Assembly (NCBI GenBank): GCA_963630775.1
Contig: CAVGNU010000001.1
Coordinates: 28,607 to 92,606, forward strand
DNA: 64,000 nt
Direction: 5' to 3'
DNA from: Bacteroides fragilis
GTDB lineage: Bacteria > Pseudomonadota > Alphaproteobacteria > Rs-D84
Positions 2,768 to 61,555 of the stretch are shown here, piece after piece. The position numbers were made by a program, and so were the translations under genes. How positions within the stretch are numbered: position 1 is the stretch's first letter; each line of letters opens with the position of its first letter. A model generated the notes under the pieces. That model saw only the letters and a list, made by a program, of their open reading frames with translations, did not search any database and was not told the origin of the DNA.

Positions 2768-3814
2768 ATGAAAATATGGATTGCAACGGGTGGTACGGGG
2801 GGACATGTGTTTCCAGCACTGAGTGTCGCAACAGAATTGGTCGCGCGTGGTCATCGGGTTATAATTTCAACCGATAGTCGCGTCAAGAAAATGGTGCGCG
2901 ATGGCGCGCCGGCTGGCGCAAAATTGGCGTGCGTGTGGGCGTCGGGCGTTGGCGCAAAGAGTCGCCTGCACCAAATCATCGCACTGTCGAAAATCGCATT
3001 TTCGGCGGCGGCATTGACGTTGCGTTTCGCGTTTTCACGCCCCGCGCGTTTGGTTGCGTTTGGTGGCTATGCATCTGTGCCGGCGGTATTTGCCGCGCAC
3101 GTGTGGCATATTCCAACATTCTTGCATGAACAAAATGCCGCGATTGGTCGCGCAAATAAATTCACAATGCGCTGGGTTAAAACATTGATGACCAGTTTCC
3201 CAACCGTATCTGGCATTCCTGCCGGCACGTCGGCACGCGTGGTTTATACGGGGCTGCCGGTGCGTCGTGAATTTTTGACCTTGGCGGGCAGTCCGATTCC
3301 AAAGCAGGGTAAATTATTGGTCACGGGTGGATCACTGGGCGCGCAAATCTTGGACGATGTTGTGCCGGTGGCAATCGCCGCAATGAAAAATAAAAAGATT
3401 TTTGTTACGCACCAGACGCGTCCTGAAAACGTTGCGCGTCTGCAAAAATTTTATGCCGAAAACAAAATCCATGCAAATGTGCTGTCGTTTATTCATGATA
3501 TGGCTGCGACGATTGCCGATGCCGATTTGGTTATTGGACGCAGCGGGGCCAGCACGGTCATAGAATTGGAAACAATCGGTCGTGGTGCGATTTTTGTGCC
3601 ATTGGGCATCAATCCTGATCAGGCCGCCAATGCCGCCAGTTTTGCGCGTCTGGGTGGCGGATTTGCGATTGAACAATCTAAATTTACGGCGCGGTGGTTG
3701 ACGGCAACGCTGACCGAATTGTTTGATAATCCATCGCGCTTGGCCAAGATGGCGCAAAAGTCATGTGTGCTGAATAATGCGGTGAATTTAATCGCCGATG
3801 AAATAACAAAATAA
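2768..3814 (+). CDS. murG: UDP-GlcNAc:undecaprenyl-PP-MurNAc-pentapeptide GlcNAc transferase
   Basis: N-terminus MKIWIATGGTGGHVFPALSVA. C-terminal GT28 domain. Confidence 0.95.
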   Translation: MKIWIATGGTGGHVFPALSVATELVARGHRVIISTDSRVKKMVRDGAPAGAKLACVWASGVGAKSRLHQIIALSKIAFSAAALTLRFAFSRPARLVAFGGYASVPAVFAAHVWHIPTFLHEQNAAIGRANKFTMRWVKTLMTSFPTVSGIPAGTSARVVYTGLPVRREFLTLAGSPIPKQGKLLVTGGSLGAQILDDVVPVAIAAMKNKKIFVTHQTRPENVARLQKFYAENKIHANVLSFIHDMAATIADADLVIGRSGASTVIELETIGRGAIFVPLGINPDQAANAASFARLGGGFAIEQSKFTARWLTATLTELFDNPSRLAKMAQKSCVLNNAVNLIADEITK

Positions 3815-14504: not shown

Positions 14505-14858
14505 ACTTTTATTTTGGCAGTCCCGTGCGGGGCTTGGCTGCCGCCGCCCTTGCAAAATTTGCTGACGCAAACCGGCATGCGTCCGCCTGCCTTTTTGCCG
14601 CAGGTCGAACCCCAACCGCGGTGTTCGATTCCCCATGTGACATACAACAAAATAAAAACCGCCGAACAAGTCGACGCTTTTTATTTTGGCAGTCCCGTGC
14701 GGGGCTTGGCTGCCGCCGCCCTTGCAAAATTTGCTGACGCAAACCGGCATGCGTCCGCCTGCCTTTTTGCCGCAGGTCGAACCCCAACCGCGGTGTTCGA
14801 TTCCCCATGTGACATACAACAAAATAAAAACCGCCGAACAAGTCGGCGTTCTTTATTT
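14505..14858. repeat. two tandem 172-bp direct repeats, each ending (minus-strand sense) with the tRNA-Glu 3' terminus GGGACUGCCA plus a terminator hairpin
   Basis: Units 14515-14686 and 14687-14858 are >95% identical. Each starts (plus strand) with TGGCAGTCCC, identical to the 3' end of the adjacent tRNA-Glu, and contains T-arm-like GGTTCGA segments and a CGCCGAC…GTCGGCG hairpin with a T-run. Confidence 0.8.
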
Positions 14859-14933
14859 TGGCAGTCCCAAGGGGAATCGAACCCCTGTTCTCAGAATGAG
14901 AATCTGATGTCCTGACCGCTAGACGATGGGACC
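14859..14933 (-). tRNA. tRNA-Glu (anticodon CUC)
   Basis: Hand-folded cloverleaf: GGTCCCA acceptor, anticodon stem TCAGA/TCTGA with loop TTCTCAT, T-arm AGGGG-TTCGATT-CCCCT, 3' TGGGACT-G-CCA. Terminator immediately downstream. Confidence 0.85.
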
Positions 14934-15046: not shown

Positions 15047-16093
15047 ATGTTACGCAAACTGTCTAAAATATTTATCGGACTGGCAATCGTTGTTGGCGTA
15101 ATCAGCGCGGGATTGTTGCTGTCACATACGTACTTTAACGATTATTTCTTTGATTCAATTACCGGTATGCAGCATCCCGCATCAAAGTTCTTGTCGCCTG
15201 ACGCGCGCGATTTAACCATTCTGGTTGCAGCGGATTCTGGGTCTAATAATTACGTGCTGGAAAATGTAATTGCAGACGCACGCCGCATTGAACCAAAGTA
15301 CGATTTTATGATGCATTTGGGCGATATGGCTATAACGGGATCTATCACCGGTTATTATTGGATGTTGGAAGAAATCAGACCCCGTCTGGGCGATATTCCA
15401 TTGTTCGCCGTCCCTGGCAATCACGACGTAACCCAGCATATCGGCTATGCCAAATACGAACATTATAACAAGGCACTGTACAGCACGGTTATGGGCCTGC
15501 CATATTATTGGTTCGGCTATGGTGATACATTGTTTATCGTACTGGATACATCAACATTGGATGTTGATGATGAACAGTTTGTTTGGCTGGATCAGACCAT
15601 GACCAAAATTCGCCCAATGTTCCGCCACTGTGTAATATTCAACCATATGCCACCGGTCAACGCGCGCCCTGATTTTATCAAGGGACACACAATGGCCCCC
15701 GCGATGGCTGAAAAATTGGCGGCGGTAATCCAGAAACATCATAAAAAGATTGATGCAATGTTGTGCGGTCATGTCCACTTTACATCACAAACCAAATGGG
15801 CGGGCATTCCTCTGTACACCGTCACCGCCAGTGGTCAGGGCGTTCGTGACAAAGACAACCCAAACTATGGCTATGCGGTCTTGAAAATTTCCAAGAATGG
15901 CGCGGTTACGGTCGAACCACACCATATCGCACATCAGGGTGCATTGCGTGAATATTTCGAAGAATGGTGGGCGCGTGATTTGTTGAGTGTCAAAGCCCAA
16001 GAATTACTGTCCACATTGTTGCAAGTATTCGGCGTGTGCTTGGTGCTGGGGATTGGCCTGCGCCTGTATGATAAATACCGCACCACCAAGTAA
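15047..16093 (+). CDS. membrane-anchored calcineurin-like metallophosphoesterase
   Basis: N- and C-terminal TM helices. Metallophos motifs GDMAITG, VPGNHD, GHVH. Confidence 0.8.
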   Translation: MLRKLSKIFIGLAIVVGVISAGLLLSHTYFNDYFFDSITGMQHPASKFLSPDARDLTILVAADSGSNNYVLENVIADARRIEPKYDFMMHLGDMAITGSITGYYWMLEEIRPRLGDIPLFAVPGNHDVTQHIGYAKYEHYNKALYSTVMGLPYYWFGYGDTLFIVLDTSTLDVDDEQFVWLDQTMTKIRPMFRHCVIFNHMPPVNARPDFIKGHTMAPAMAEKLAAVIQKHHKKIDAMLCGHVHFTSQTKWAGIPLYTVTASGQGVRDKDNPNYGYAVLKISKNGAVTVEPHHIAHQGALREYFEEWWARDLLSVKAQELLSTLLQVFGVCLVLGIGLRLYDKYRTTK

Positions 16094-16169
16094 TCAAAAA
16101 TCCCACGTCTGTGGGATTTTTGATTTTCGGTTATGCTTGGTGTGTAATTCTCAAACGGTTCAAGTGATT

Positions 16170-16847
16170 TTATTCGTATTTTTTTAGTAACTCTTTCCAC
16201 ACTTGTGGTGCATTTACTTCATCAAAGTAGTCATTCAAAAATTTAACAATGGTTTGATGTTTCCTTTCTGCATATTTGCGTCCTGGTTCAGTTAAACACA
16301 TATCGCGCAAATGAAATATTTTAACAAAAAAGTGATTTACGCACGAATCGATTTTTGATTTTCTGTACGTTTCGGCATCCATTTCTTTTGGAAAATAATC
16401 TGGGTCAAAAAATGGTTGGCCTGTTCCAGACCGATATTCAATACACCGTAACAGACCTGTGCATCCGGACGCGTCGCACATGTCTGCATCGGACACAACA
16501 GCACCTTCGATACCGTATACTGCAATACCCTTTAACCGTTTACTGTATCCAATAGTTTTTACAATATTGATACATTTTTTACAGAATTCGGCATCAAATC
16601 CAGACCCCGATAGTATACGTTTAGTATTGGTCATCAGACGTTCTGATTCTTCGCCAAACAGTTTATAATCATCACAATCATGCAATAATGCCGCTGCGGC
16701 CACCAAATCACGATTAGCGGATGGAATACCTTCACAAAATTTCATTGCCGTGTTATAAACACGAAACACGTGTTGATGGTCATGTCCATTAGAGTTTGTT
16801 TTAAGTAATTCAAACACCTCGTTTTTTATATATTTAATGCCTGTCAT
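16170..16847 (-). CDS. HD-domain metal-dependent phosphohydrolase
   Basis: H…HD…H…D signature (HDHQHVFRV…ALLHDCDDYK…). AT-rich gene. Confidence 0.75.
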   Translation of the reverse strand: MTGIKYIKNEVFELLKTNSNGHDHQHVFRVYNTAMKFCEGIPSANRDLVAAAALLHDCDDYKLFGEESERLMTNTKRILSGSGFDAEFCKKCINIVKTIGYSKRLKGIAVYGIEGAVVSDADMCDASGCTGLLRCIEYRSGTGQPFFDPDYFPKEMDAETYRKSKIDSCVNHFFVKIFHLRDMCLTEPGRKYAERKHQTIVKFLNDYFDEVNAPQVWKELLKKYE

Positions 16848-17436
16848 ACCAGATCCTTTTTCTTGCCGTATGATATGTTATCATAAAAAATTTACATTGC
16901 GTATACCACAATAAAAAACGCCCCGTGCGGGCGTTGTTTATTGGTGTCGGCAGCAACCATAAAACAATGGTTTACAATAATTCCACAGATGTTATAACTG
17001 TGTCGGCTGACAGCGGAATATATAAAATAAAGCCGGACAGCGCGCTGAATATTTATTCCGCAGAAAACCTGACCATAAACAGTGCTGGTGAAAACGGTTC
17101 GCAGACAAACGTCGTGCGGCAATTAAATACTCCGGCGGTAATATTGGATGTTTTTCCAGGATTTTTCCTGGGGATAATCCCTATACTGGTGGATGCCGTG
17201 TCAAACAATCTGTATAAAATGCCATCAACATACTCGTATTCGTGTTGATACATCACCCGCAACTGTGGGGGATTTTAATTGGACTTGTCACGCAATATTG
17301 TGGTATAAGAAATAATAAAATATAACGACGGGGGCAAAATGTATTTTTACGAAAAACATAAAAGATTGTTCAAAAAATTGTTCAGTATATTTATTTCATC
17401 ACGCAGCCATAGATATTATTTGAATACAATTTTATC

Positions 17437-18267
17437 GTGGCCGGGGGGGGGGGGGGAGATTTTAGAAACAAAGAAAAGCAGTTAATGACGGCGCGGTCGG
17501 AGAAATCAGAATTTCCAAATTTTCTGTCTGTGGTTGCCATTATGAAAAATGAAGCGAAATATTTGCAGGAATGGTTGGAATATTACAGGATTATTGGGGT
17601 GGATAAATTTTATCTGTATGATAACGGCAGCACAGATGAAACAGCAAAAATTTTGAAACCGTATATAGAATCTGGAATTGTCGAGTTAACTTATTTGCTG
17701 GGCGAAAAAATGCAGATTCCCGCATATACAGATTTTATAACACGTTTCAAAAATGATACTAAATGGGCCATAATTGTAGATTTGGATGAATTTGTTGTTT
17801 CCAAAAAGTGTGGCATAACCGATTTCTTGAGAAAATTACCAAACAAAGTCTCACAGATAATTGTGCCGTGGATTTTCTTTGGTTCAAATGGGCATAAAAC
17901 ACAACCAGATGGGTTGGTCATTGAAAATTATACTAAACGAGCCACAAAACCACGATTGTATAAATCTATTATAAATCCACGACGGGTTCTGGTAATGAAA
18001 TGTCATGAGCACACGGTGGTTGGAAAAACAATTTTTCAAAAAATGGATACTTTGTTGGTAAATCACTATTATTGCAAATCTCTGCAAGAGTATTTACGAC
18101 GCGCAAACCGTGGTGATGCGTTGAATGGGAATGATTTTGCACAAAAAGAATTTGTTAAATCTACATTTGATAAATTTGATACGAATGATGTGCCAGATTT
18201 GTTTATTCAGCAATATGTTCCAGCAATAAAAGACAGAATGAAAAAATTTATCCCGCCACAGGGGTAA
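17437..18267 (+). CDS. glycosyltransferase (GT2-like / GT92-DUF23-type fold)
   Basis: Motifs …VVAIMKNEAKYLQEWLEYYRIIGVDKFYLYDNGSTDET… and …IIVDLDEF…. Very AT-rich relative to flanking genes. In-frame ATG at 17485 is an alternative start. Confidence 0.7.
   Translation: MAGGGGGDFRNKEKQLMTARSEKSEFPNFLSVVAIMKNEAKYLQEWLEYYRIIGVDKFYLYDNGSTDETAKILKPYIESGIVELTYLLGEKMQIPAYTDFITRFKNDTKWAIIVDLDEFVVSKKCGITDFLRKLPNKVSQIIVPWIFFGSNGHKTQPDGLVIENYTKRATKPRLYKSIINPRRVLVMKCHEHTVVGKTIFQKMDTLLVNHYYCKSLQEYLRRANRGDALNGNDFAQKEFVKSTFDKFDTNDVPDLFIQQYVPAIKDRMKKFIPPQG
17443..17456 (+). repeat. G14 homopolymeric tract (candidate slipped-strand phase-variation switch)
   Basis: 14 consecutive G at the 5' end of the glycosyltransferase ORF. 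The upstream ORF from ATG 17339 terminates just after the tract in the +1 frame. One extra G would fuse the two frames. Confidence 0.8.
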
Positions 18268-18345
18268 GATTCTTGGAAACTATGTGGAGGAGATAGGACA
18301 TGCCGGGTTCCCTCGGCACAGTTGTGGCTGCAAAATGGGGGATAT

Positions 18346-18591
18346 CTAATTCCAGAAATGTCTGTTCGCGAATGCCTGACCTGAACCTGTTTTCAGATAT
18401 TTTTCAAATTCGGCGGCGGCATGACGACCAGAAAAGGCGAAATAATTCACCAATTTCCATGGTGTGTACTTTGATGTGTGAAACGAATAACCAGAATTGT
18501 GTTGTTTCAGTCGTTTTTGTAAATCATCGGTCATACCAATGTACCGTTGGTCTGGATTTGAAATACTTCTGATTAAATATACGTAAAACAT
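18346..18591 (-). CDS. GIY-YIG nuclease superfamily protein (UPF0213/YhbQ-like)
   Basis: Trimmed to ATG 18591 (MFYVYLIRS…) so it does not run into the tRNA. GIY…YIG motif YVYLIRS…RYIGMTDDLQKRLKQHN. Confidence 0.65.
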   Translation of the reverse strand: MFYVYLIRSISNPDQRYIGMTDDLQKRLKQHNSGYSFHTSKYTPWKLVNYFAFSGRHAAAEFEKYLKTGSGQAFANRHFWN

Positions 18592-18721
18592 AATTCCATA
18601 ATAAAAAAACAGGAAATAAACGTCAAGTAATTCGCCACACTTCGTTAAAACTACGTGTGGCACTCCTTCTTGTAACTGTGCCGCTTGGGCTTGCCGCCCG
18701 AAGCGTCGCAGACGCGAAGGG

Positions 18722-18795
18722 TGGTTGGGGCGCACGGATTCGAACCATGATAAAGAGAACCAAAATCTCTTGTCCTACCATTAGACGACACCCCA
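18722..18795 (-). tRNA. tRNA-Gln (anticodon UUG)
   Basis: Hand-folded: TGGGGTG acceptor (U1-A72 as in Gln), D-stem GTCT/GGAC, anticodon stem AGAGA/TCTCT with loop TTTTGGT, T-arm CATGG-TTCGAAT-CCGTG, CGCCCCA-A-CCA. Confidence 0.85.
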
Positions 18796-19002
18796 AAGGC
18801 GTCTATGATTATAAATATCTTTTGCTTTTTTGCAATAATAAAAATGTGCGCGTGGCAACATAACATCAAAAAAATGCATTTTTTGTGTTTTTGTACTTGC
18901 TTTTAATTGTTTTGTAAATATAATCATTCAAGTTTTTAATAATTAAAAGTGTTTTAATCATTAAAAGGGAACAATCACACCATCTGCCAAAAGGGGGCAA
19001 AA

Positions 19003-28929: not shown

Positions 28930-29688
28930 ATGACACGATTCCGCATAACACTTGAATACGATGGCACGGATTTAATTGGCTGGCAAGAAAACCGCCAAGG
29001 TCCATCTGTGCAGTCTATTTTACGCGATGCAATTTTTGCATTTTGCGCCGTGCGCCCCAGTATTGTTGCGGCGGGTCGTACCGATGCGGGCGTGCATGCG
29101 TTGGGAATGGTTGCGCATTTTGATTTGGATGGGGCGTTTGACGCAAATACCGTGATGAGTGCGGTAAATTTTTATCTGACCGATAAACCCGTGGTCATAT
29201 TGTCGTGCGATGTGGTGGCGGATGACTTTAACGCGCGATTTGATTGCGTGGCGCGCCATTATCGCTATGTCGTGCTGAACCGTCGCGCCGCGCCGGTGTT
29301 GAACAAGAATCGTGTATGGTGGGTTCCGCGTGAACTGGATGTTGACGCAATGCGCGTCGCCGCCACGCGCCTGATGGGGCATCATGACTTTACCAGTTTT
29401 CGCGCCACCCAGTGTCAGGCAAAAAGCCCGATAAAAACATTGGACACTTGCAATATTATGACTGATGGCGACAACGTGATTTTTGAATTTTCTGCGCGTT
29501 CATTTTTGCATCATCAGGTACGTAATATGGTTGGTACATTGGTTGAAATTGGTCTGGGCAAACCATACGATATTGATGAAATATTTGCTGCGCACAATCG
29601 CAGTGCCGCGGGGCCAACCGCACCGGCATCAGGATTGTATTTTATTTCTGCGGATTATGCCACGGACGCGTCGCGTTCAGATATTTGA
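28930..29688 (+). CDS. truA: tRNA pseudouridine(38-40) synthase
   Basis: N-terminus MTRFRITLEYDGT…GWQ. Catalytic Asp in GRTDAGVHA. Confidence 0.9.
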   Translation: MTRFRITLEYDGTDLIGWQENRQGPSVQSILRDAIFAFCAVRPSIVAAGRTDAGVHALGMVAHFDLDGAFDANTVMSAVNFYLTDKPVVILSCDVVADDFNARFDCVARHYRYVVLNRRAAPVLNKNRVWWVPRELDVDAMRVAATRLMGHHDFTSFRATQCQAKSPIKTLDTCNIMTDGDNVIFEFSARSFLHHQVRNMVGTLVEIGLGKPYDIDEIFAAHNRSAAGPTAPASGLYFISADYATDASRSDI

Positions 29689-31576
29689 CCCGTCCCGATG
29701 GGTAAATCATAATCCCGCCATCGTGCAAGATTTTGTTCGCACATTGTGGCGCATCAATATGAAAATATGACACAATATAATCAATGCTGTCATCTTTGCA
29801 TAATGCAATAATATTATTCATCAATGGTACAAATTTCTGAATATATACCAATGTAAATTCTGGCGCGTAATATGTGTAGACGCCGTGTGCGTGCACATAG
29901 CGCGGATTTGGGGTGTCTGTGACTTCGCCATTTATTTGTTTCCATGTGTTGAATGCAAAGTAATGATTTGATGCGCGTGATTTGTTAAATTTCAGTTTTC
30001 CATTTTCGATAAACCCAACCAATTCATGATCTGGTGTTGCATAAAATACTGGTCGTGGTGTGGCAACGACAACCACCACCCCAATAATTGCAATTATACA
30101 CGCTGATACGTAATTCACGCGTCGCCGCACACCGCAAATAAACATCAGCACGCATCCCGCCGCAATAAATATAATCAGTGCGGTATTCGGCATATGTGGC
30201 ATTGGCAAACTGGCATACGGTAAATTTGTAATTATGTGCGCAATGCGCAGGCCCGTATCATAAATCATCGCCGCCAGCATCAATGGTGCATGCCACCCCA
30301 ACATTGCGGTCAATGTTCCCACGATAACCAATGGCATAATCGCAATTGAAAATATCGGCAACAGCACCAGATTGCCAATCAAACTGTATAACGGAAATGT
30401 CCCAAAGTGCGCAATTACAAACGGTGCGGTAAATACAGTTGCGATTATTGATGTCAGTGCCGCCGTGCATAAAACTTTCAGAATTTTATGTTCTGGCATT
30501 TTTGGTTTTATTACGCCCCAGAACCAAATCAGTCCAAATATCGCCGCAAATGATAATTGAAATCCAGCCTGCATGACATAGTGCGGATTTATCAAAATTA
30601 TAATCCACATTGCAACGCACACGTTGCGCAGTGATATTGCACTGCGTCCGAATACCACAGCAGCAAATATCAGTGTCGTCATCAGAAATGCACGCATTGT
30701 TGCCACATCGCAGCCCGACAGGAACAGATATAATATCAGTCCCAACCACGCGCAAATCGTTGCCGGCACTCGTGCGGGCACGCGTCGTGTAATTGGTGCA
30801 ATCAGCCGACATATAGAATAAAATAATACAAACAGCCACCCACCAACCAGTGTCATATGAAACCCGCTGATTGACCATACGTGTCCAACACCAGTTGCCG
30901 TCCATGTTGGACTGTCGTCGCGTGGAACTGCATTCTTGTATCCCAATACCAGACTGTCAACCAAGAACGAATTGGAGTTATTGTGAATTGCATCGCGCAC
31001 GGTGTTCATATTATGCGGCGGGTCATGCGATATGATGTCATAATCCTTGATATAGCCCGTCGCCGTCAAATGATTAAAGTACGCCCATCGGGCATAGTTA
31101 AACGCGCCATCGGCATACGGGGCATTTGGACGATATAAATTGACCACTGCACGAATCGTATCACCAATGTTTATCGCACCCCCATCTGATATAGATGCCC
31201 GCACAACAGGCGTGCCAATGACGTCAATATATTGACCATCGGTCTGAATGCTCAGTCGGGTTTTAGCATCAGTGTAATCTATGTTTTTAACCACACCAAC
31301 AATTGTTCGGTCGCGAATGTCACGCGTCATTTGCGGTGTTGCTAAAATGTGGGTATATGCTGCCGCATACAGCGCGCCAAAGATAAACAGGGCCATCGCC
31401 CGCACAACAATATATTTACGCAAAAATACCCCTGCTATAAATACTGCACACAACGCGCCGATTACAAATTTGCTGGGTTCAGTATTCAAAGAAAAATACA
31501 ACGCACACCCCATCGCCACCAAAAACGGCGTCCATAAAAACAGATTCAGGGATTGATTTTCAATAAACCGTTGCAT
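29642..31576 (-). CDS. comEC: ComEC/Rec2-family DNA internalisation competence protein
   Basis: Polytopic membrane protein with a Competence domain (…GVGHVWSISGFHMTLVGGWL…). Start set at ATG 31576 rather than ORF-track 31705, to avoid overlapping the divergent pyrG start. Lacks an obvious metallo-beta-lactamase C-terminal domain. Confidence 0.75.
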   Translation of the reverse strand: MQRFIENQSLNLFLWTPFLVAMGCALYFSLNTEPSKFVIGALCAVFIAGVFLRKYIVVRAMALFIFGALYAAAYTHILATPQMTRDIRDRTIVGVVKNIDYTDAKTRLSIQTDGQYIDVIGTPVVRASISDGGAINIGDTIRAVVNLYRPNAPYADGAFNYARWAYFNHLTATGYIKDYDIISHDPPHNMNTVRDAIHNNSNSFLVDSLVLGYKNAVPRDDSPTWTATGVGHVWSISGFHMTLVGGWLFVLFYSICRLIAPITRRVPARVPATICAWLGLILYLFLSGCDVATMRAFLMTTLIFAAVVFGRSAISLRNVCVAMWIIILINPHYVMQAGFQLSFAAIFGLIWFWGVIKPKMPEHKILKVLCTAALTSIIATVFTAPFVIAHFGTFPLYSLIGNLVLLPIFSIAIMPLVIVGTLTAMLGWHAPLMLAAMIYDTGLRIAHIITNLPYASLPMPHMPNTALIIFIAAGCVLMFICGVRRRVNYVSACIIAIIGVVVVVATPRPVFYATPDHELVGFIENGKLKFNKSRASNHYFAFNTWKQINGEVTDTPNPRYVHAHGVYTYYAPEFTLVYIQKFVPLMNNIIALCKDDSIDYIVSYFHIDAPQCANKILHDGGIMIYPSGRVKYLNATRPWHNPQK

Positions 31577-31655
31577 AACCAAATTATAGGAATTTATTTC
31601 GTTGCGTCGCAATGATAAATTTCGTATGATGAAAGTCCATAAGGGGGCAAATCTT

Positions 31656-33227
31656 ATGGCGAAATATATATTTATCACCGGTGGTGTTGTATCCAGTTTG
31701 GGCAAGGGCGTCGCAGCGGCAGGTTGTGGCGCTCTTCTTCAATCGCGCGGGTATTCCGTGCATGCGCGCAAATTTGATCCGTATTTGAATGTTGACCCTG
31801 GGACTATGTCGCCGTTCCAGCATGGCGAAGTGTACGTTACCCATGACGGGTTTGAAACGGATTTGGATTTGGGATATTACGAACGATTCTTGGGCGTACA
31901 ATTGTCGCGTAATGATTCTGTGTCGGGTGGACGTATTTATTGGGACGTGCTGAATGCCGAACGCCGTGGTGATTATTTGGGCGCGACGGTGCAAATGATT
32001 CCACACGTCAGCAATCGAATCAAAGAATACATTGCCGCCCCAACCAATACGGATTTTGTTGTGTGTGAAATTGGTGGTACGGTCGGTGATATAGAGGGAA
32101 AAATATTCCTGGAATCCATTCGCCAGTTTGCGAATGATGTCGGTCGCCGTAATGTAATGTTTGTGCACCTGACGCTGGCCCCATATTTGGAACAGAGTGG
32201 CGAATTAAAAACAAAACCAACCCAGATGTCTGTGCGTCGTCTGTTGGAAAACGGGATTCAGGCAGACATGCTGATTGTGCGCACGCCGCGTATGTTGACC
32301 GCAGACGAACGCGCCAAAATCGGTATGTTTTGTAATATGCCGGCAAAAAATGTAATCAGCGGGATTGATGTTGATAATATTTACAAAATTCCACTGGCCT
32401 ACGATGCCCAGAATGTTTTTAACATAATTGCTGAACATTTTGGATTGGAAAATCGCGCGGGCGATATGACAAAATTTCAACGCATATCAAATCATCTGGC
32501 GGCAGATTTGCCAACCGTACGAATAGGCATTGTTGGTAAATACTTTGATGTGCCTGATGCCTATAAATCACTGAATGCGGCATTGTTCCACGCGGGGATT
32601 CAGAATAATGTGCATGTCGCGTTAAAGAAAATAAATGCAGAAACATTTTCGCCATCTGATTGTGCGGATGTTGATGGCGTCCTTGTCCCTGGGGGATTTG
32701 GCGCGCGTGGTGTTGATGGCAAAATCGCAGCCGCCAATTATGCCAGAACAACGGGCACGCCGTATATGGGAATCTGTCTGGGTATGCAGGTCGCGGTAAT
32801 TGAATTTGCGCAAAATGTGCTGGGAATTAAAGATGCAAATTCCACAGAATTTGATGCGAATTGCACGCCCGTTATAAATATTATGCCAGACCACACGGGC
32901 GATATGGGTGGAACATTGCGTTTGGGCGCGTACCCGTGCGTGATTACGCCGCGTACGCATGCCGCCGAAATTTATGATACGAATAAAATATCAGAACGCC
33001 ATCGGCACCGCTACGAAATGGACATATCATTTGAAAAACAATTTTCTGATGCGGGCATGATTATCTCTGGACGCAGTCCAGACGGACGCCTGCCCGAAAT
33101 CGTAGAATTAGCAAATCACCCATTCTTTGTTGCGGGTCAATTTCATCCGGAATTTCAGTCCAGTCCATTTACCGGCCACCCAATGTTTAACGCATTTATT
33201 GCGGCGGCAATAAAACATAAAAAATAA
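31656..33227 (+). CDS. pyrG: CTP synthase
   Basis: AAGGGGG RBS. N-terminus MAKYIFITGGVVSSLGKG. C-terminal glutamine amidotransferase domain with GICLGMQ. Confidence 0.95.
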   Translation: MAKYIFITGGVVSSLGKGVAAAGCGALLQSRGYSVHARKFDPYLNVDPGTMSPFQHGEVYVTHDGFETDLDLGYYERFLGVQLSRNDSVSGGRIYWDVLNAERRGDYLGATVQMIPHVSNRIKEYIAAPTNTDFVVCEIGGTVGDIEGKIFLESIRQFANDVGRRNVMFVHLTLAPYLEQSGELKTKPTQMSVRRLLENGIQADMLIVRTPRMLTADERAKIGMFCNMPAKNVISGIDVDNIYKIPLAYDAQNVFNIIAEHFGLENRAGDMTKFQRISNHLAADLPTVRIGIVGKYFDVPDAYKSLNAALFHAGIQNNVHVALKKINAETFSPSDCADVDGVLVPGGFGARGVDGKIAAANYARTTGTPYMGICLGMQVAVIEFAQNVLGIKDANSTEFDANCTPVINIMPDHTGDMGGTLRLGAYPCVITPRTHAAEIYDTNKISERHRHRYEMDISFEKQFSDAGMIISGRSPDGRLPEIVELANHPFFVAGQFHPEFQSSPFTGHPMFNAFIAAAIKHKK

Positions 33228-42978: not shown

Positions 42979-43010
42979 AAAATAAACCCGCCATACGGCG
43001 GGATTTTATT
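42979..43010 (-). terminator. terminator of virB8-9-10-like operon
   Basis: CCCGCCATACGGCGGG hairpin with flanking T-run. Abuts the VirB10 stop. Confidence 0.7.
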
Positions 43011-45435
43011 ACAAGATTGGCGGGAAACAATCGCCACCCGATGATGGACAGCAATTAAACCCTTGGTCGCCCATATCGGTAAACACTTCGCCCGTGCAAC
43101 AACCATTGGCATCTGGGTTTGTGCCGTCTTCGCAGGTGATGACGGCGGTTGCTTGGTTTTCCTCTTTCTGGGCCGTTTGGAACGGATTCTGAATTGAACC
43201 ATCGTCATTATATTTCAGACCCAAAACATTTTCGTTGTATGTTTTGCTGCCAACGCCGCCCGTGCTGGCAATACTGTTCGTATTGGACGCGTCCTGCTGA
43301 TTTTTATACAGCGCATCTTGCTTTGCATTATTGATGGCCTGATAATTCAGTGATTTGCAATACGCCGCAACGGTACGATAATCATAGCCCGCATCATATA
43401 AATCTTGTGTTCTGTTTTTATCAATGTCCCACAGTCCACTGGTCGCGTCTTGGGTACAGTAATTGTCCTGTAAATTAAACGAACGTACCTGACCAATCCA
43501 TGAACCGTCGGTATAATCCACCTGACCAGCGTGTGCCCAATTCGCGCGCTTATTACGAACATCTATATTGGTATACTTCACTTTGTCATTTAGATTTTTC
43601 AGTCCTGTGTCGCCCACGACCCGTGCCAAGGAGCATCTTTTACTGTCGTCACGGCCACATGTCAGCACCAAATCAGTCGGTGGAAACACTGTAATGCGTG
43701 TACCCGCCGCGATGGAAAATGGCGGAACGGTATTGTCCATCATGTCAACAATAAACTTTTGTGCGACCTGATTCCATGCGGTGATAATTTCATTTTTTGC
43801 CAATTCAGACGAACGCACCGTGCCCGATTGAACAACTGTGTTATTGTCCAAATCAATCTGGTTCACAAATTTATCAGTAATTGGTGCAATCATATTCACC
43901 GCCGCCGGCACAACCGCCGTCAGCAATGGCATAACCATCTGTTCTATATAATCGGTGCTGCCGTAACCTGGGACACCAACGCGCCCCTGTGAATCGCCAG
44001 AAAACGGACTGGTGCCGTCGCCACTGAAATTAAATTCAACACCATTTGGCAATACAAATTGATACCAGCGAATGTCCATACGCCCAACGGTTTTATATGG
44101 CCCCGGAATACTGCCTGTCACATACCCTAACAGCAATGTTCCCGTTGGAATAATAACCGTACGGCCATCATCTGAATAAACGTTACGGTCAACCGTTGCG
44201 CGCACGGGCAGACCTTTGCCTGTACCATCATATAATGCTGGATCGGCACGAACCTCTGACACGATTGTGGCTGGAATTGGTTTATATTGGCGCAGTACAA
44301 ACGTGCGGTCAAACGGATCGGACGAGAATATAGCGTCCTGGCCACTTGAACCAACAATCACATCGTCTTGTTTTTCTTTCAACGAAATCCCGCCACGGAA
44401 TGCATTGTGAATTGCATCTGCATCGGCATAGTCGGGCGCAGGCATTGCACCAGACACATCAGATGAAATCAGTTCTTCGGTGGACAACTGGTACGCACGA
44501 TTCGCAACCTTTTTAACTGGATTTGACAACTGGGGCAAGTTACCCCCCGAAATCGTTGTATAGCCGATGTGTTCAGCATCTGTACCAATCTTTTTACCAT
44601 TGTTTTGAATATCGGTAATCAGGCCACTGTCCGGATTATAAATACCCGTGGGGTTATTGCATTGTTTGTCAGAAAATGGGTGGAAATAATACGCGCCGCG
44701 TTCCGGCCGAATCCAACCAATCTGATTGCCAGTTGAATCATACCCCGGAAATGCAAATTCAGAACATACAACGCTGGGCGTCGGATCGAGCTCTGTATCT
44801 GCAAACGGATCAGATGGTGCGATTGTTTCAATATCTTTTTTGATTTCAACCTGAACTGGTTTTACAGGTTCAATTTCTGGTTCGGGTTTTGTTTCGACAA
44901 TCTTTACCGGTTCGGGTTTTGTCACAGGTGTTGGTGCAGCCGCGCCCATAACCAAAACAATCTTGTCGGTCTTTTTCATACCATCGGGTTGCGTTGCCCC
45001 ACGCCAATCAATAAACAGCGATGTTGTTTCCGTATCCATTGCGGTCGTCGGTACATATTCCAATACCAGTGTGCACGGAATTTGTGCGTCGATATAACCC
45101 ATACCACGACAAGTATCGGTTGATGTGAATCCGGCGATGTCTTTGTGGCGACGTACATCCATAATTTTAACGGGTGCGGTTGCCGAAACCTTTAACGTTG
45201 TCTTTTGCTTGTCACCAACCTTGGTATTGGCCCAGTTGATGGATTCCGTCGCTGGCGTGATAATCAGGTTGATTGGTGTATCTTCTGCTTGTATATCGTT
45301 GGGTTTACCACGTCCGCCAATCAGTACGGTCATTAAAATCAGCACCACAACAAACGCCACCCCCAGCAACAACCACTGAACCGACCTTGGCGTAGATTTA
45401 CGCATTTGTGAAATTTGTTGTTTGATACCACTCAT
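43009..45435 (-). CDS. virB10: VirB10/TrbI-family type IV secretion protein with ~200-aa cysteine-rich C-terminal extension
   Basis: Cytoplasmic N-terminus and single TM (WLLLGVAFVVVLILMTVLIGG). Pro-rich linker TKPEPVKIVETKPEPEIEPVKPVQVEIKK. TrbI-like C-terminal barrel ending in the family signature …AAGTRITVFPPTDLVL. Extra tail with 12 Cys including two CC doublets. Confidence 0.8.
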   Translation of the reverse strand: MSGIKQQISQMRKSTPRSVQWLLLGVAFVVVLILMTVLIGGRGKPNDIQAEDTPINLIITPATESINWANTKVGDKQKTTLKVSATAPVKIMDVRRHKDIAGFTSTDTCRGMGYIDAQIPCTLVLEYVPTTAMDTETTSLFIDWRGATQPDGMKKTDKIVLVMGAAAPTPVTKPEPVKIVETKPEPEIEPVKPVQVEIKKDIETIAPSDPFADTELDPTPSVVCSEFAFPGYDSTGNQIGWIRPERGAYYFHPFSDKQCNNPTGIYNPDSGLITDIQNNGKKIGTDAEHIGYTTISGGNLPQLSNPVKKVANRAYQLSTEELISSDVSGAMPAPDYADADAIHNAFRGGISLKEKQDDVIVGSSGQDAIFSSDPFDRTFVLRQYKPIPATIVSEVRADPALYDGTGKGLPVRATVDRNVYSDDGRTVIIPTGTLLLGYVTGSIPGPYKTVGRMDIRWYQFVLPNGVEFNFSGDGTSPFSGDSQGRVGVPGYGSTDYIEQMVMPLLTAVVPAAVNMIAPITDKFVNQIDLDNNTVVQSGTVRSSELAKNEIITAWNQVAQKFIVDMMDNTVPPFSIAAGTRITVFPPTDLVLTCGRDDSKRCSLARVVGDTGLKNLNDKVKYTNIDVRNKRANWAHAGQVDYTDGSWIGQVRSFNLQDNYCTQDATSGLWDIDKNRTQDLYDAGYDYRTVAAYCKSLNYQAINNAKQDALYKNQQDASNTNSIASTGGVGSKTYNENVLGLKYNDDGSIQNPFQTAQKEENQATAVITCEDGTNPDANGCCTGEVFTDMGDQGFNCCPSSGGDCFPPIL

Positions 45436-45459
45436 ATTATACCGCCACCATTGACATTA

Positions 45460-47007
45460 TTATTGAATACGCACAACGTTGCAACTGGCCCCGCTGAATT
45501 TCAACAACTGGTCGCATAATTTCTGCGCTGTTTCGATATCAGACATTGGCCCAATGCGCAGACGATACAGACGTGCCGTGTGCGATGTTGAACCCAAATC
45601 GCCAACACCTTGTTCGTCAACCGCAAAGAATACCTTGTCCTTGTACGGAGTCAACAATCCAACACCGTCGTCACCGCTGAATTTTGCCAACAGACCCGTC
45701 CAGTAATCGTCCAGTGCCTTGACCGACGTGTCGGATTTCAGTTCAACCGCAACCCCCGATTGGTTGCTGGTAATCAATGGAATATTCGTCTGGGGCAGGT
45801 ACGAACCCGCGGTCAACCGTTCGGTTGGCATCATTGTAACGCCCGATGTCCCCGATGACATAACCGGCATTGTAACATTTGTTGTGACCGTGCCCGCTGG
45901 CATATAATAACCAGACGCCGCCACAGCATTAGTATTTGAAACATATGTCGGAGAACCGGTATAGTTCAACCCCGCAGCATTGATTGCATTCTGATCCATC
46001 GTGTATGCAATGGTGTTCAGCGATTGGCCTGACATCATAGATTGCGCAACATTTGCCTCTGCCAATGCCATGACAGACGCCGTATCGGCAATCAAGAACG
46101 GTTTTTCACGCTTTTTAATGCAAACGATACGTTGGCCACTGCGTAATACCATGTCGCCTACGGCCTCTACAATCAACAGACGACCATCTTCGCCGTCGGT
46201 GCGGAAACTGACAGGGGATTCACCCCCTTCGACCAACAGTGACACAACCGGACGTTGGGTCATCGCAATGACCTTGTCACCAAAGTCAATGTATGTGAAT
46301 ATGCGGTCGCGCCATACGCGTTCGGGTGCAATTACATAATCGTCAGGATTTGGGACAAAAATATCCAAGTCAAAACGAAATTCTGATGGATCAATTTTCA
46401 TAGATTTAATCCAACCATAATCTTCGCCATCAACGCCAACCGTGCTGCTGGGGGCGGCGGCCTTTTTGAAAATTGACGATGCGCCACCAGTTGTGGTGGT
46501 CGCCGCGGTTGCGTTTGGCAATGTTGCGTTGCCGTCCAAAACAACGTCAACCTGTGAATAGGTAATCTCGCTGGAATTTGATGGTTCGCTGCGCAGATAG
46601 AAAATATACTTGTTCCCCGATTTGCCCGTCACAATCAAATTAGTGTCTGAACCCTGATTGCTGGCAGTTGGGCTGATAACCATTGTGCGGTCGCCCTGAT
46701 TGGCCTCAATCGTGAACAGACCCTGATTACCAATAACTGCGTCCGCAATTTGTTCCCCGTTTGGCAGGGACACCATCGTCACCATACCGTTGCGCAATTT
46801 GATTGGCAATACACTGCCTGATTCCCATGACAGTTGCGCGTACCCAGGTTTAATACTGCCTGCGGCCATATTTGCGGTTGGGTTGTCCCACGCATCTTGG
46901 ACACCATAGTTGATGCCTGTGGCCGCACCATGTGCAGACACACACAATGCCATAACGCAGAAAACAGAAATGTTTAATTTAATCGCAGTTCTAAAACTCA
47001 TGCCCAT
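45460..47007 (-). CDS. virB9: VirB9/TrbG/CagX-family type IV secretion protein with C-terminal SPOR-like domain
   Basis: Signal peptide. N-domain …TNLIVTGKSGNKYIFYLRS. CagX_C-like block …RIFTYIDFGDK…VSLLVEGGESPVSFRTDGEDGRLLIVEAVGDMVLRSGQRIVCIKK. Ser/Thr-rich linker. Terminal …ARLYRLRIGPMSDIETAQKLCDQLLKFSGASCNVVRIQ resembles SPOR. Confidence 0.75.
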   Translation of the reverse strand: MGMSFRTAIKLNISVFCVMALCVSAHGAATGINYGVQDAWDNPTANMAAGSIKPGYAQLSWESGSVLPIKLRNGMVTMVSLPNGEQIADAVIGNQGLFTIEANQGDRTMVISPTASNQGSDTNLIVTGKSGNKYIFYLRSEPSNSSEITYSQVDVVLDGNATLPNATAATTTTGGASSIFKKAAAPSSTVGVDGEDYGWIKSMKIDPSEFRFDLDIFVPNPDDYVIAPERVWRDRIFTYIDFGDKVIAMTQRPVVSLLVEGGESPVSFRTDGEDGRLLIVEAVGDMVLRSGQRIVCIKKREKPFLIADTASVMALAEANVAQSMMSGQSLNTIAYTMDQNAINAAGLNYTGSPTYVSNTNAVAASGYYMPAGTVTTNVTMPVMSSGTSGVTMMPTERLTAGSYLPQTNIPLITSNQSGVAVELKSDTSVKALDDYWTGLLAKFSGDDGVGLLTPYKDKVFFAVDEQGVGDLGSTSHTARLYRLRIGPMSDIETAQKLCDQLLKFSGASCNVVRIQ

Positions 47008-60415: not shown

Positions 60416-60487
60416 TTTCAATCAAGGAATTATAGAGAGGCAGATTTAGCGCATCGCGTGCATATCTGCTTTTTTATTGTAAAAAAT

Positions 60488-61555
60488 ATGTCAGACAAGA
60501 AAATTATTTCTGTTGATGCAATGGGGGGGGACAAAGGGCCCAAGGCCGTCTTGGGTGGCATGAACCAGTTCTTGTATCAAAATGGCGAAGGCAAGGTGTT
60601 CTTTCGCCTGTTTGGGAACGAGGCATTATTGCGTCGTATGTTGGCGAAATACCCACGCGTCGCGCGTAATTGCGATGTCATTGATGCACCAAATGTAATT
60701 CGTGGCACGGACAAGGTTCGCGACGTTATTCGTCATGCGCAGGATACATCCATGTACATGGCAATCAAAGACGTCCGCGAAGGCAAATCTGCCGCGGTGG
60801 TCAGTGCAGGTAACACTGGCATATTTATGTCGCTGTCCAAACTGATGCTGAAAACAACGGCTGGTATTGCGCGCCCAGCAATTACAACAATGTTGCCATC
60901 GGGTGGTGGGGATTCACGCGTGGTGGTTTTGGATTTGGGTGCAAATGTTCAGTGCGACGAAACAATCCTGTTTGATTTTTCGGTATTAGGTACGGTTTAT
61001 GCAGAGGTTATCGGTAAAATGCCACGCCCAAAATTGGGCGTCCTGAATATCGGTGCCGAAGAAACCAAGGGCAATGACACGTTGGTTCATTTGAACCATG
61101 TCTTGAACGAACACAAAGATGAATTACCATACGAATACATCGGCTTTGTCGAGGGGAATGACATCAGTGGCGGTAATGTTCAGGTTGTTGTCACCGACGG
61201 ATTTACTGGGAATATCGTTCTAAAAACGGTCGAGGGTACGGCAAAACTGATTAAACGCGTATTGGTTGATAACCTGAAAAAATCTGTTTTGGCAATGGTC
61301 GGTGCGTTTTTCTTGGTGCACGTGTTCAAACGCCTGAAACACAAGATTGACCCACGTTCGTATGCGGGTGCGGTGTTCTTGGGGTTGCAAGGGTTCGCGG
61401 TCAAGACCCATGGCAACAGCGATGCGCTGGCATTCGCGAACGCACTGAAATACGCAACGGATTTAACAAGCGCAAATCTGAATGATTTGATTGCCCAACG
61501 GGCCGCATCGGTTTCCAAAATCCGTGACGAGTTCAAAATAGCAGCAGAACAATAA
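60488..61555 (+). CDS. plsX: phosphate acyltransferase PlsX
   Basis: N-terminus MSDKKIISVDAMGGDKGP… and full PlsX fold. Terminator ACAGCGGGGCATCGCCCCGTTTTTT at 61557-61582. Confidence 0.9.
   Translation: MSDKKIISVDAMGGDKGPKAVLGGMNQFLYQNGEGKVFFRLFGNEALLRRMLAKYPRVARNCDVIDAPNVIRGTDKVRDVIRHAQDTSMYMAIKDVREGKSAAVVSAGNTGIFMSLSKLMLKTTAGIARPAITTMLPSGGGDSRVVVLDLGANVQCDETILFDFSVLGTVYAEVIGKMPRPKLGVLNIGAEETKGNDTLVHLNHVLNEHKDELPYEYIGFVEGNDISGGNVQVVVTDGFTGNIVLKTVEGTAKLIKRVLVDNLKKSVLAMVGAFFLVHVFKRLKHKIDPRSYAGAVFLGLQGFAVKTHGNSDALAFANALKYATDLTSANLNDLIAQRAASVSKIRDEFKIAAEQ

Follow-up and report, generated by a model that had tools for sequence, protein, structure and literature searches.

Introduction

In textbooks, slipped-strand phase variation of surface glycans is associated with a small number of mucosal pathogens, and the phase variation known from gut commensals proceeds mainly through invertible promoters and methylation. 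Lipooligosaccharide (LOS) enzymes known from such pathogens belong to glycosyltransferase families GT8, GT25, GT10/11 or GT2, whereas the enzyme considered in the present study belongs to family GT92 (PF01697). In insect endosymbionts, a different use of homopolymers has been described, in which poly(A) frameshifts are rescued by transcriptional slippage.

Genome surveys of phase-variable genes have relied on operational cut-offs for tract length. The PhasomeIt criteria consider G/C tracts of at least 7 nucleotides as phase-variable, and poly-G/C lengths of 13-15 are rare in Campylobacter (PMC6321876). Comparable operational criteria have been used to describe the phasome of Neisseria (PMC5953494).

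Here we describe a candidate locus of this kind in a stretch of DNA of 64,000 nucleotides (hereafter the window, meaning the whole stretch that was analysed). The locus was compared with its homologues, with the alleles of a sister lineage represented by contigs including L002 to L005, and with GT92 genes of other gut bacteria.

The homopolymer and its reading frames

The initial annotation had noted 14 consecutive G close to the 5' end of a gene resembling GT92/GT2 and had described an open reading frame (ORF) from ATG 17339 that crosses the run and ends nine codons later; the window sequence and its ORF listing agree with both descriptions. The elements of the locus around the tract are given below in window coordinates.

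17330-17334, + strand: GGGGG, a Shine-Dalgarno-like sequence and putative ribosome-binding site (RBS) located 4 nt 5' of ATG 17339, kept in the sister lineage
17339-17485, + strand: ORF1, 48 aa from an ATG start, running across the tract to a stop 9 codons past it (TAA 17483-17485)
17437-17439, + strand: GTG, the start chosen by the gene caller for the 276-aa ORF, without a Shine-Dalgarno-like sequence upstream
17437-18267, + strand: ORF2, 276 aa when begun at GTG; ATG 17485 is an alternative start; frame -1 with respect to ORF1
17443-17456, + strand: homopolymer of 14 consecutive G, the proposed slipped-strand switch, encoding a Gly loop between helix 3 and helix 4; 14 G is OFF (-1), and 12, 15 and 18 G are ON
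17483-17487, + strand: TAATG, in which the stop of the 14-G stub overlaps ATG 17485 of a 260-aa ORF, a possible termination-reinitiation site, identical in the sister lineage

The G14 tract is the only homopolymer longer than 8 nucleotides in the 64-kb window, and the only other G/C run of at least 7 is a G8 at 60523-60530. Independent sampling from the base composition predicts 2e-4 G/C runs of at least 14 per 64 kb, and runs of G10 appeared with a mean of 0.02 in 100 dinucleotide-preserving shuffles of the window. The G8 run was considered as a second contingency locus and rejected, since about one G/C run of at least 8 is expected by chance in 64 kb; it lies in frame within plsX (60458-61555), where it encodes a conserved M-G-G-D. 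The gene carrying G14 is thus the one candidate contingency locus of the window, which provides no evidence of a genome-wide phasome.

The dependence of the reading frame on tract length was reconstructed in silico by rebuilding the gene with 10 to 18 G. Tracts of 12, 15 and 18 G gave a single ORF of 308, 309 and 310 aa, respectively, and all the remaining lengths rebuilt from 10 to 17 G gave a stub of 40-49 aa, which bears out the proposal that 15 G would join the two ORFs into one. The 260-aa ORF that opens at ATG 17485 includes the entire catalytic domain.

The length of 14 G comes from a short-read assembly and carries an uncertainty of +/-1. The Logan assembly of SRR13434632 (contig L001) agrees with the window at every position (100%) over 1.9 kb and likewise has G14, although it may come from the same reads as the window and its independence is uncertain. 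The position at which this contig starts, 37 nt upstream of the tract, was also considered as a sign of read heterogeneity and found uninformative, its first 31-mer missing the tract.

The fused gene and its enzyme family

A homologue search with the 15-G fused protein as query returned 485 homologues; among the best 120 of these, nearly all were 295-318 aa long, and many spanned 94-99% of the query. An alignment of 25 homologues was built from 24 sequences of 270-317 aa and the window's own 276-aa ORF2 product (P0001). In this alignment the stretch encoded by ORF1 is conserved and joined directly to the catalytic domain, with the N-terminal consensus FY-x-H ... FIP-x-x-S-x-R-x-x-I ... L-x-Y-P-x-G-x-x-x-F, and the poly-G tract corresponds to its P-x-G loop. 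About 100 homologues have a length of 300-315 aa and a conserved N-terminus matching ORF1, and therefore the fused form represents the real gene, of which ORF1 supplies the true N-terminus, as had been suggested. These sequences make it clear that the fused ORF is ancestral. The two parts that the tract separates are the following.

17339-17442, + strand: true N-terminal part of the coding sequence (residues 1-34, plus bases 1 and 2 of codon Pro35), whose product is a basic and helical segment conserved among homologues (25-sequence alignment, AlphaFold)
17457-18267, + strand: helix 4 and the GT92/GT-A catalytic domain, intact (Pfam, invariant columns, dN/dS, Foldseek)

The AlphaFold model computed on the homologue alignment reached a pLDDT of 92.6, with values of 85-91 over residues 1-50. 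It places helices at residues 2-6, 8-18 and 22-33, a Gly loop at 34-38 and a fourth helix at 39-52, followed by the first beta strand of the GT-A fold. As the tract encodes a loop in this model, one Gly more or fewer should be tolerated. The same region had been described as a hydrophobic, anchor-like N-terminus that would attach the protein to the membrane, and this description does not hold: there is no transmembrane segment, the highest 19-residue Kyte-Doolittle mean being 0.44 (first 35 windows), and the first 34 residues contain 7 K/R versus 1 D/E. The N-terminus is at most a basic amphipathic element.

The assignment to the glycosyltransferase family is solid. ORF2 matches Pfam Glyco_transf_92 (PF01697) with 94.5 bits against a cut-off of 23 (E 1e-26) and also matches Glyco_tranf_2_4. 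The DxD motif (D148-L149-D150 of the fused protein) and the histidines H223 and H243 are invariant in the 25-sequence alignment. Moreover, the top PDB match in Foldseek was GalS1 (8d3t, E 1e-14, TM 0.60), followed by other GT-A enzymes, and a profile match to GalS1 was obtained with E 1e-7.

Alleles of the tract in a sister lineage

The cluster of ORF2 at 90% identity contains four proteins, of 276 aa, 260 aa (NCBI, from ATG 17485), 271 aa and 308 aa, the last being full-length. In the protein collection the window lineage is represented only by P0001 (Logan) and P0122 (NCBI, 260 aa). Orthologous loci had been pointed out as the place to look for variation in tract length and frame, and both differ there. 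At the site of the tract L002 reads TGGCC-G8-TGAAAGATTTT, which is in frame, encodes 308 aa and represents an ON allele. By comparison, L003, L004 and L005 read TGGCC-G7-TGAAAGATTTT, a split, frameshifted OFF allele called as a 271-aa protein. Over the sister lineage, G7 was counted in at least 5 contigs and G8 in 2; G7 is represented in ERR8981361, ERZ26859191 and SRR29834476, and G8 in SRR29834489.

The relationship among these contigs sets the scale on which the two alleles can be interpreted. Contigs L003-L005 are mutually at least 99.99% identical and amount to essentially one strain, L002 being another strain at 99.3-99.7% identity; since the G7 contigs come from one strain, the difference between G7 and G8 is one mutational event and not repeated switching. 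The 61 substitutions that distinguish L002 from L003 all lie left of position 3210 of L002, and the remaining 5.7 kb on the right, glycosyltransferase gene included, are the same in both apart from an indel of a single G in the tract. The tract has thus changed within a span of time that left these 5.7 kb without any base substitution. As a separate observation, the mosaic of the two contigs, with its 61 substitutions confined to 3.2 kb on the left, from gyrA to the metallophosphoesterase gene, suggests recent recombination or a sweep over the glycosyltransferase gene and the downstream LpoB/OMP genes.

The OFF alleles of the sister lineage (G7) and the window (G14) share the same -1 frame, the G7 allele also has the stub end on TAATG, and the two alleles arose independently at one site. 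Where the sister allele has G8 followed by TGAAA, the window has G14 followed by A, its tract having taken in the following GTG-AAA codons and become longer. A 57%-identical homologue has CCT GGG GGC at this position, which corresponds to G5, and a comparison of these sequences indicates that the tract site grew from G5 through G7/G8 to G14. The copies of the gene in the window and in L002 are separated by 24 synonymous and 13 non-synonymous changes, with a dN/dS of 0.13 over 270 codons, and neither OFF lineage has a further stop or frameshift in the 810 nt downstream of the tract; the low dN/dS and the lack of other lesions imply that the gene is not an old pseudogene.

Additional alleles were sought in larger collections. 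A DNA pattern of the tract flanks with a variable gap gave 0 matches in JGI metagenome contigs, a protein-based scan of JGI metagenome contigs returned no relatives, and an exact look-up of the products predicted for 9-18 G, both stubs and fused proteins, found none of them in a collection of 15 billion proteins.

Poly-G tracts in GT92 genes of other gut bacteria

G/C runs of at least 8 were counted across 508 kb, made up of 80 loci with homologues in species-representative genomes; the gene together with 100 nt upstream and 60 nt downstream was taken as the GT92 gene and made up 17% of the sequence. Nine of the 13 runs were located inside a GT92 gene (binomial P 5e-5, or 2e-4 without one near-duplicate). 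Two of these genes are split at the tract: the gene of a Deferribacterales metagenome-assembled genome (MAG) (L061, 2849-3825) at a G11 just ahead of the catalytic domain, its 68-aa N-terminal stub carrying the family motif, and the gene of L042 (~2853-3643) at a G8. Tracts in frame were found in L054, L020, L045, L052, L059 and L070, while in L030 (2840) a G9 precedes the ATG by about 40 nt. The recurrence of poly-G in GT92 genes of gut bacteria argues against a one-off accident.

Further positions of poly-G/C in other gut MAGs include 4003 in L059, 261 in L061 and 2289 in L068. Besides, C9-C10 tracts occur in regions neighbouring GT92 genes and may mark more contingency genes.

Genomic context and host organism

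The glycosyltransferase gene lies within a stretch that differs from its surroundings in composition. The elements of this region are listed below.

16170-16847, - strand: HD-domain gene, GC 37%
16925-17248: unassigned ORF of 107 aa in the low-GC stretch
17317-18287, + strand: glycosyltransferase cassette of RBS and gene, bordered by about 20 nt at either end, 94.6% DNA identity to sister contig L002 (blastn), GC 35%
~18346-18594, - strand: GIY-YIG gene in the low-GC stretch
18722-18795, - strand: tRNA-Gln in the low-GC stretch

The syntenic flanks of the window and L002 are less similar than the cassette, with 81.5% identity for gyrA, 68% for the metallophosphoesterase gene and 68% for an APH-like gene. 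The glycosyltransferase gene itself has a GC content of 35.4%, compared to 46.6% in the window and 46-48% in the flanking housekeeping genes. The suggestion that this AT-rich gene came by horizontal transfer is sustained by the identity of the cassette (against 68-82% in the flanks) together with its low GC, and on this sequence evidence the gene looks horizontally acquired.

About 3 kb at 16000-19000 have 37-38% GC. The sister lineage is without the HD-domain gene and the 107-aa ORF and has other downstream genes, and the region therefore looks like a variable islet adjoining a tRNA. Elsewhere in the window, at 14507-14868, a 172-bp unit is repeated in tandem (2.1 copies, 98% identity) and abuts tRNA-Glu (14859-14933, - strand); a 49-nt piece of this repeat matches positions 2692-2740 of L002 with 98% identity.

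The window genes adjoining the glycosyltransferase gene are not for glycan synthesis. In another contig (L086, 3001-6192), a 57%-identical homologue is part of a tandem GT92 pair followed by an RgpF (rhamnan synthesis) gene. A surface glycan is a candidate target in view of the enzyme family and of this homologue locus with RgpF, the only hint from gene context, the window neighbours being unrelated.

RpoB of the window is 97% identical to the nearest cluster, which has 754 member sequences, 91-93% identical to many entries named "MAG: Alphaproteobacteria bacterium" and 91% identical to Candidatus Enterousia avicola. Homologues of the glycosyltransferase were found in MAGs from the gut of ruminants, horses, birds, humans and termites, some of them labelled Rickettsiales, and the best match in the genome-contig scan was 55% identical to the glycosyltransferase. 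From its RpoB sequence, the host is a gut-associated uncultured alphaproteobacterium of the Candidatus Enterousia group. The view that it is an intracellular alphaproteobacterium was not supported, considering the similarity of RpoB to that of the gut bacterium Candidatus Enterousia avicola and the animal-gut MAGs that are its nearest relatives. The window also encodes VirB10/TrbI-like (807 aa) and VirB9/CagX-like (514 aa) proteins of type IV secretion at 43009-47007 (- strand), upstream of the tRNA-Trp / rpoBC region, and ComEC at 29642-31705, which together bear on the lifestyle of the lineage.

Discussion

The locus described here is probably a simple-sequence-repeat (SSR) contingency locus subject to slipped-strand mispairing, with the assembled sequence in the OFF (-1) frame. 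The architecture proposed by the initial annotation was borne out by the intragenic tract, the toggling of the frame and the presence of ON and OFF alleles in relatives, and the locus has several of the features by which contingency loci are recognized, namely a tract of at least 7, a frame that depends on its length, ON and OFF alleles in close strains and a gene under purifying selection. The state of two of the three sampled lineages, which are OFF, is also compatible with early gene decay.

Under the contingency-locus reading, a single GT92 gene of the GT-A fold, with about 309 codons, would be hypermutable at codons 35-40, where the poly-G tract encodes the loop between the N-terminal helices. 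Slipped-strand mispairing during replication would add or drop G, so that lengths of 12, 15 and 18 G would keep the gene in frame and ON, with a loop longer or shorter by one Gly, and other lengths would end translation after 40-49 residues and turn it OFF. A glycan of the cell surface, which could be LPS/LOS, capsule or a glycoprotein, probably receives a sugar from this enzyme, in which case switching would generate a mixed population with and without the epitope, which might be useful against phage, host immunity and lectins in the gut. The OFF state may also be leaky, as the sequence would allow reinitiation on TAATG at ATG 17485, yielding the 260-aa ORF with the catalytic domain, or a frame-restoring -1 slip in the G run, made by ribosomes or by RNA polymerase. 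That a clone would switch back and forth at high frequency, what the enzyme acts on and what is gained by switching are all inferred.

Other explanations of the split gene have to be considered. It could reflect a miscalled homopolymer, in which case the real tract would have 15 G (or 12 G), the gene would be intact and the split would be a short-read or assembly artefact. Illumina sequencing is prone to errors in long runs of G, the beginning of the Logan contig so close to the tract indicates that the assembly was fragmented nearby, and an intact gene would agree with a fused ORF that is clearly ancestral and with the purifying selection on the gene. Nevertheless, we consider a miscall unlikely, given that 14 G was found in both the window and the Logan contig, even if these possibly derive from the same reads, and that the tract of the sister lineage, which is shorter and reliably sequenced, truly differs among contigs, which demonstrates genuine frame-changing alleles at the site. 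Besides, a true 15-G tract would still be hypermutable, which would exchange ON for OFF as the state of the sequenced allele and leave the nature of the locus unchanged. An acquired accessory glycosyltransferase that is being lost could produce a similar picture, the homopolymer being then just the site of the first inactivating indel of an incipient pseudogene without any adaptive switching. The frameshifts in two of the three lineages, the foreign, AT-rich nature of the cassette and its variable location, and the constancy of G7 in three contigs of the G7 strain from different samples, where OFF appears stable, are all in line with decay. We regard this as improbable, however, because decay fits poorly with the dN/dS of 0.13 and the absence of secondary lesions in the 810 nt downstream in both OFF lineages, with a tract that became longer over time (G5 to G8 to G14) and was neither eroded nor interrupted, with two OFF alleles of independent origin at the same site, and with a frequency of poly-G in GT92 genes of unrelated gut bacteria far higher than in their flanks.

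The 14-G allele might also be expressed constitutively, at least in part, by recoding through RNA-polymerase slippage, -1 ribosomal slippage or termination-reinitiation on TAATG. The change from the frame of ORF1 to that of ORF2 requires exactly -1, and the stub stops on the TAATG that opens an ORF with the whole catalytic domain, as it does in the G7 allele of the sister lineage. Transcriptional slippage on long homopolymers is also established, for A/T runs. On the other hand, neither a stimulatory structure nor a Shine-Dalgarno-like sequence was found upstream of ATG 17485 or GTG 17437, the Met at the position of ATG 17485 is not conserved in homologues, and the in-frame G8 allele of the sister lineage indicates that the normal state needs no recoding. 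Altogether, recoding as the explanation of the locus is very improbable, and at most it would make the OFF state leaky.

Returning to the contingency locus, the data also give a hint that it is part of a self-contained switchable cassette exchanged horizontally, and that GT92 is a favoured switch site in gut bacteria. A bolder version of this idea, which we hold to be unlikely, is that the switch travels with the gene, in a cassette of RBS, GT92 gene and internal G tract (17317-18287) exchanged among gut alphaproteobacteria; that GT92 genes are a recurrent home of poly-G across phyla of gut commensals (Alphaproteobacteria, Deferribacterales, termite-gut and Bacteroidales-labelled MAGs); and that the lineage may have three states, with a full-length protein, a truncated catalytic domain made through TAATG reinitiation (-1) and a null (+1).

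If the contingency-locus reading is correct, widely sampled uncultured gut alphaproteobacteria (Candidatus Enterousia and relatives) would apply poly-G switching to a GT92 enzyme, in a family that carries poly-G tracts in several other gut phyla as well. Glycosyltransferases split by a homopolymer in MAGs should then not be dismissed as pseudogenes or assembly errors, and tract-length ratios in metagenomes could be used to track surface-glycan switching in situ in unculturable organisms.

Among enzymes of known structure, the closest comparison is GalS1 (PDB 8d3t, 8d3z), a poplar galactan synthase and GT92 beta-1,4-galactosyltransferase that shares the GT92 match, the fold, the DxD motif and the His residues with the window protein; at about 16% identity, the specificity of the latter is not inferable from it. 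GalS1, a Golgi enzyme of eukaryotes, contains further domains, whereas the window protein is extended at its N-terminus by a basic helical segment of its own, which is conserved. The poly(A) frameshifts of insect endosymbionts resemble the present case in that a long homopolymer is found in an otherwise intact gene, out of frame in the assembly, in a host-associated bacterium with a small genome. They differ in depending on A/T runs and polymerase infidelity, where the window has a G run, and the in-frame allele in a near relative of the window points to length variation at the DNA level, unlike the endosymbiont case.

Another close resemblance is to the phase-variable poly-G/C LOS/LPS/capsule glycosyltransferases of Campylobacter jejuni, Helicobacter pylori, Neisseria and Haemophilus, with which the window locus shares an intragenic G tract of at least 7 near the 5' end, a frame toggled by +/-1, ON and OFF alleles among close strains and the condition of a stand-alone accessory gene. 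The hosts of these systems are epsilon-, beta- and gammaproteobacteria, whereas the host of the window is a gut alphaproteobacterium; the tract of the window has 14 G compared to the 9-10 typical of the pathogen systems, and the window locus is known from sequence alone. Literature searches returned no report specific to phase-variable GT92 enzymes of bacteria, nor any on SSR phase variation among alphaproteobacteria of the gut. Taken together with the described systems, the mechanism proposed here is ordinary, and the host and the enzyme family in which it is found are new.
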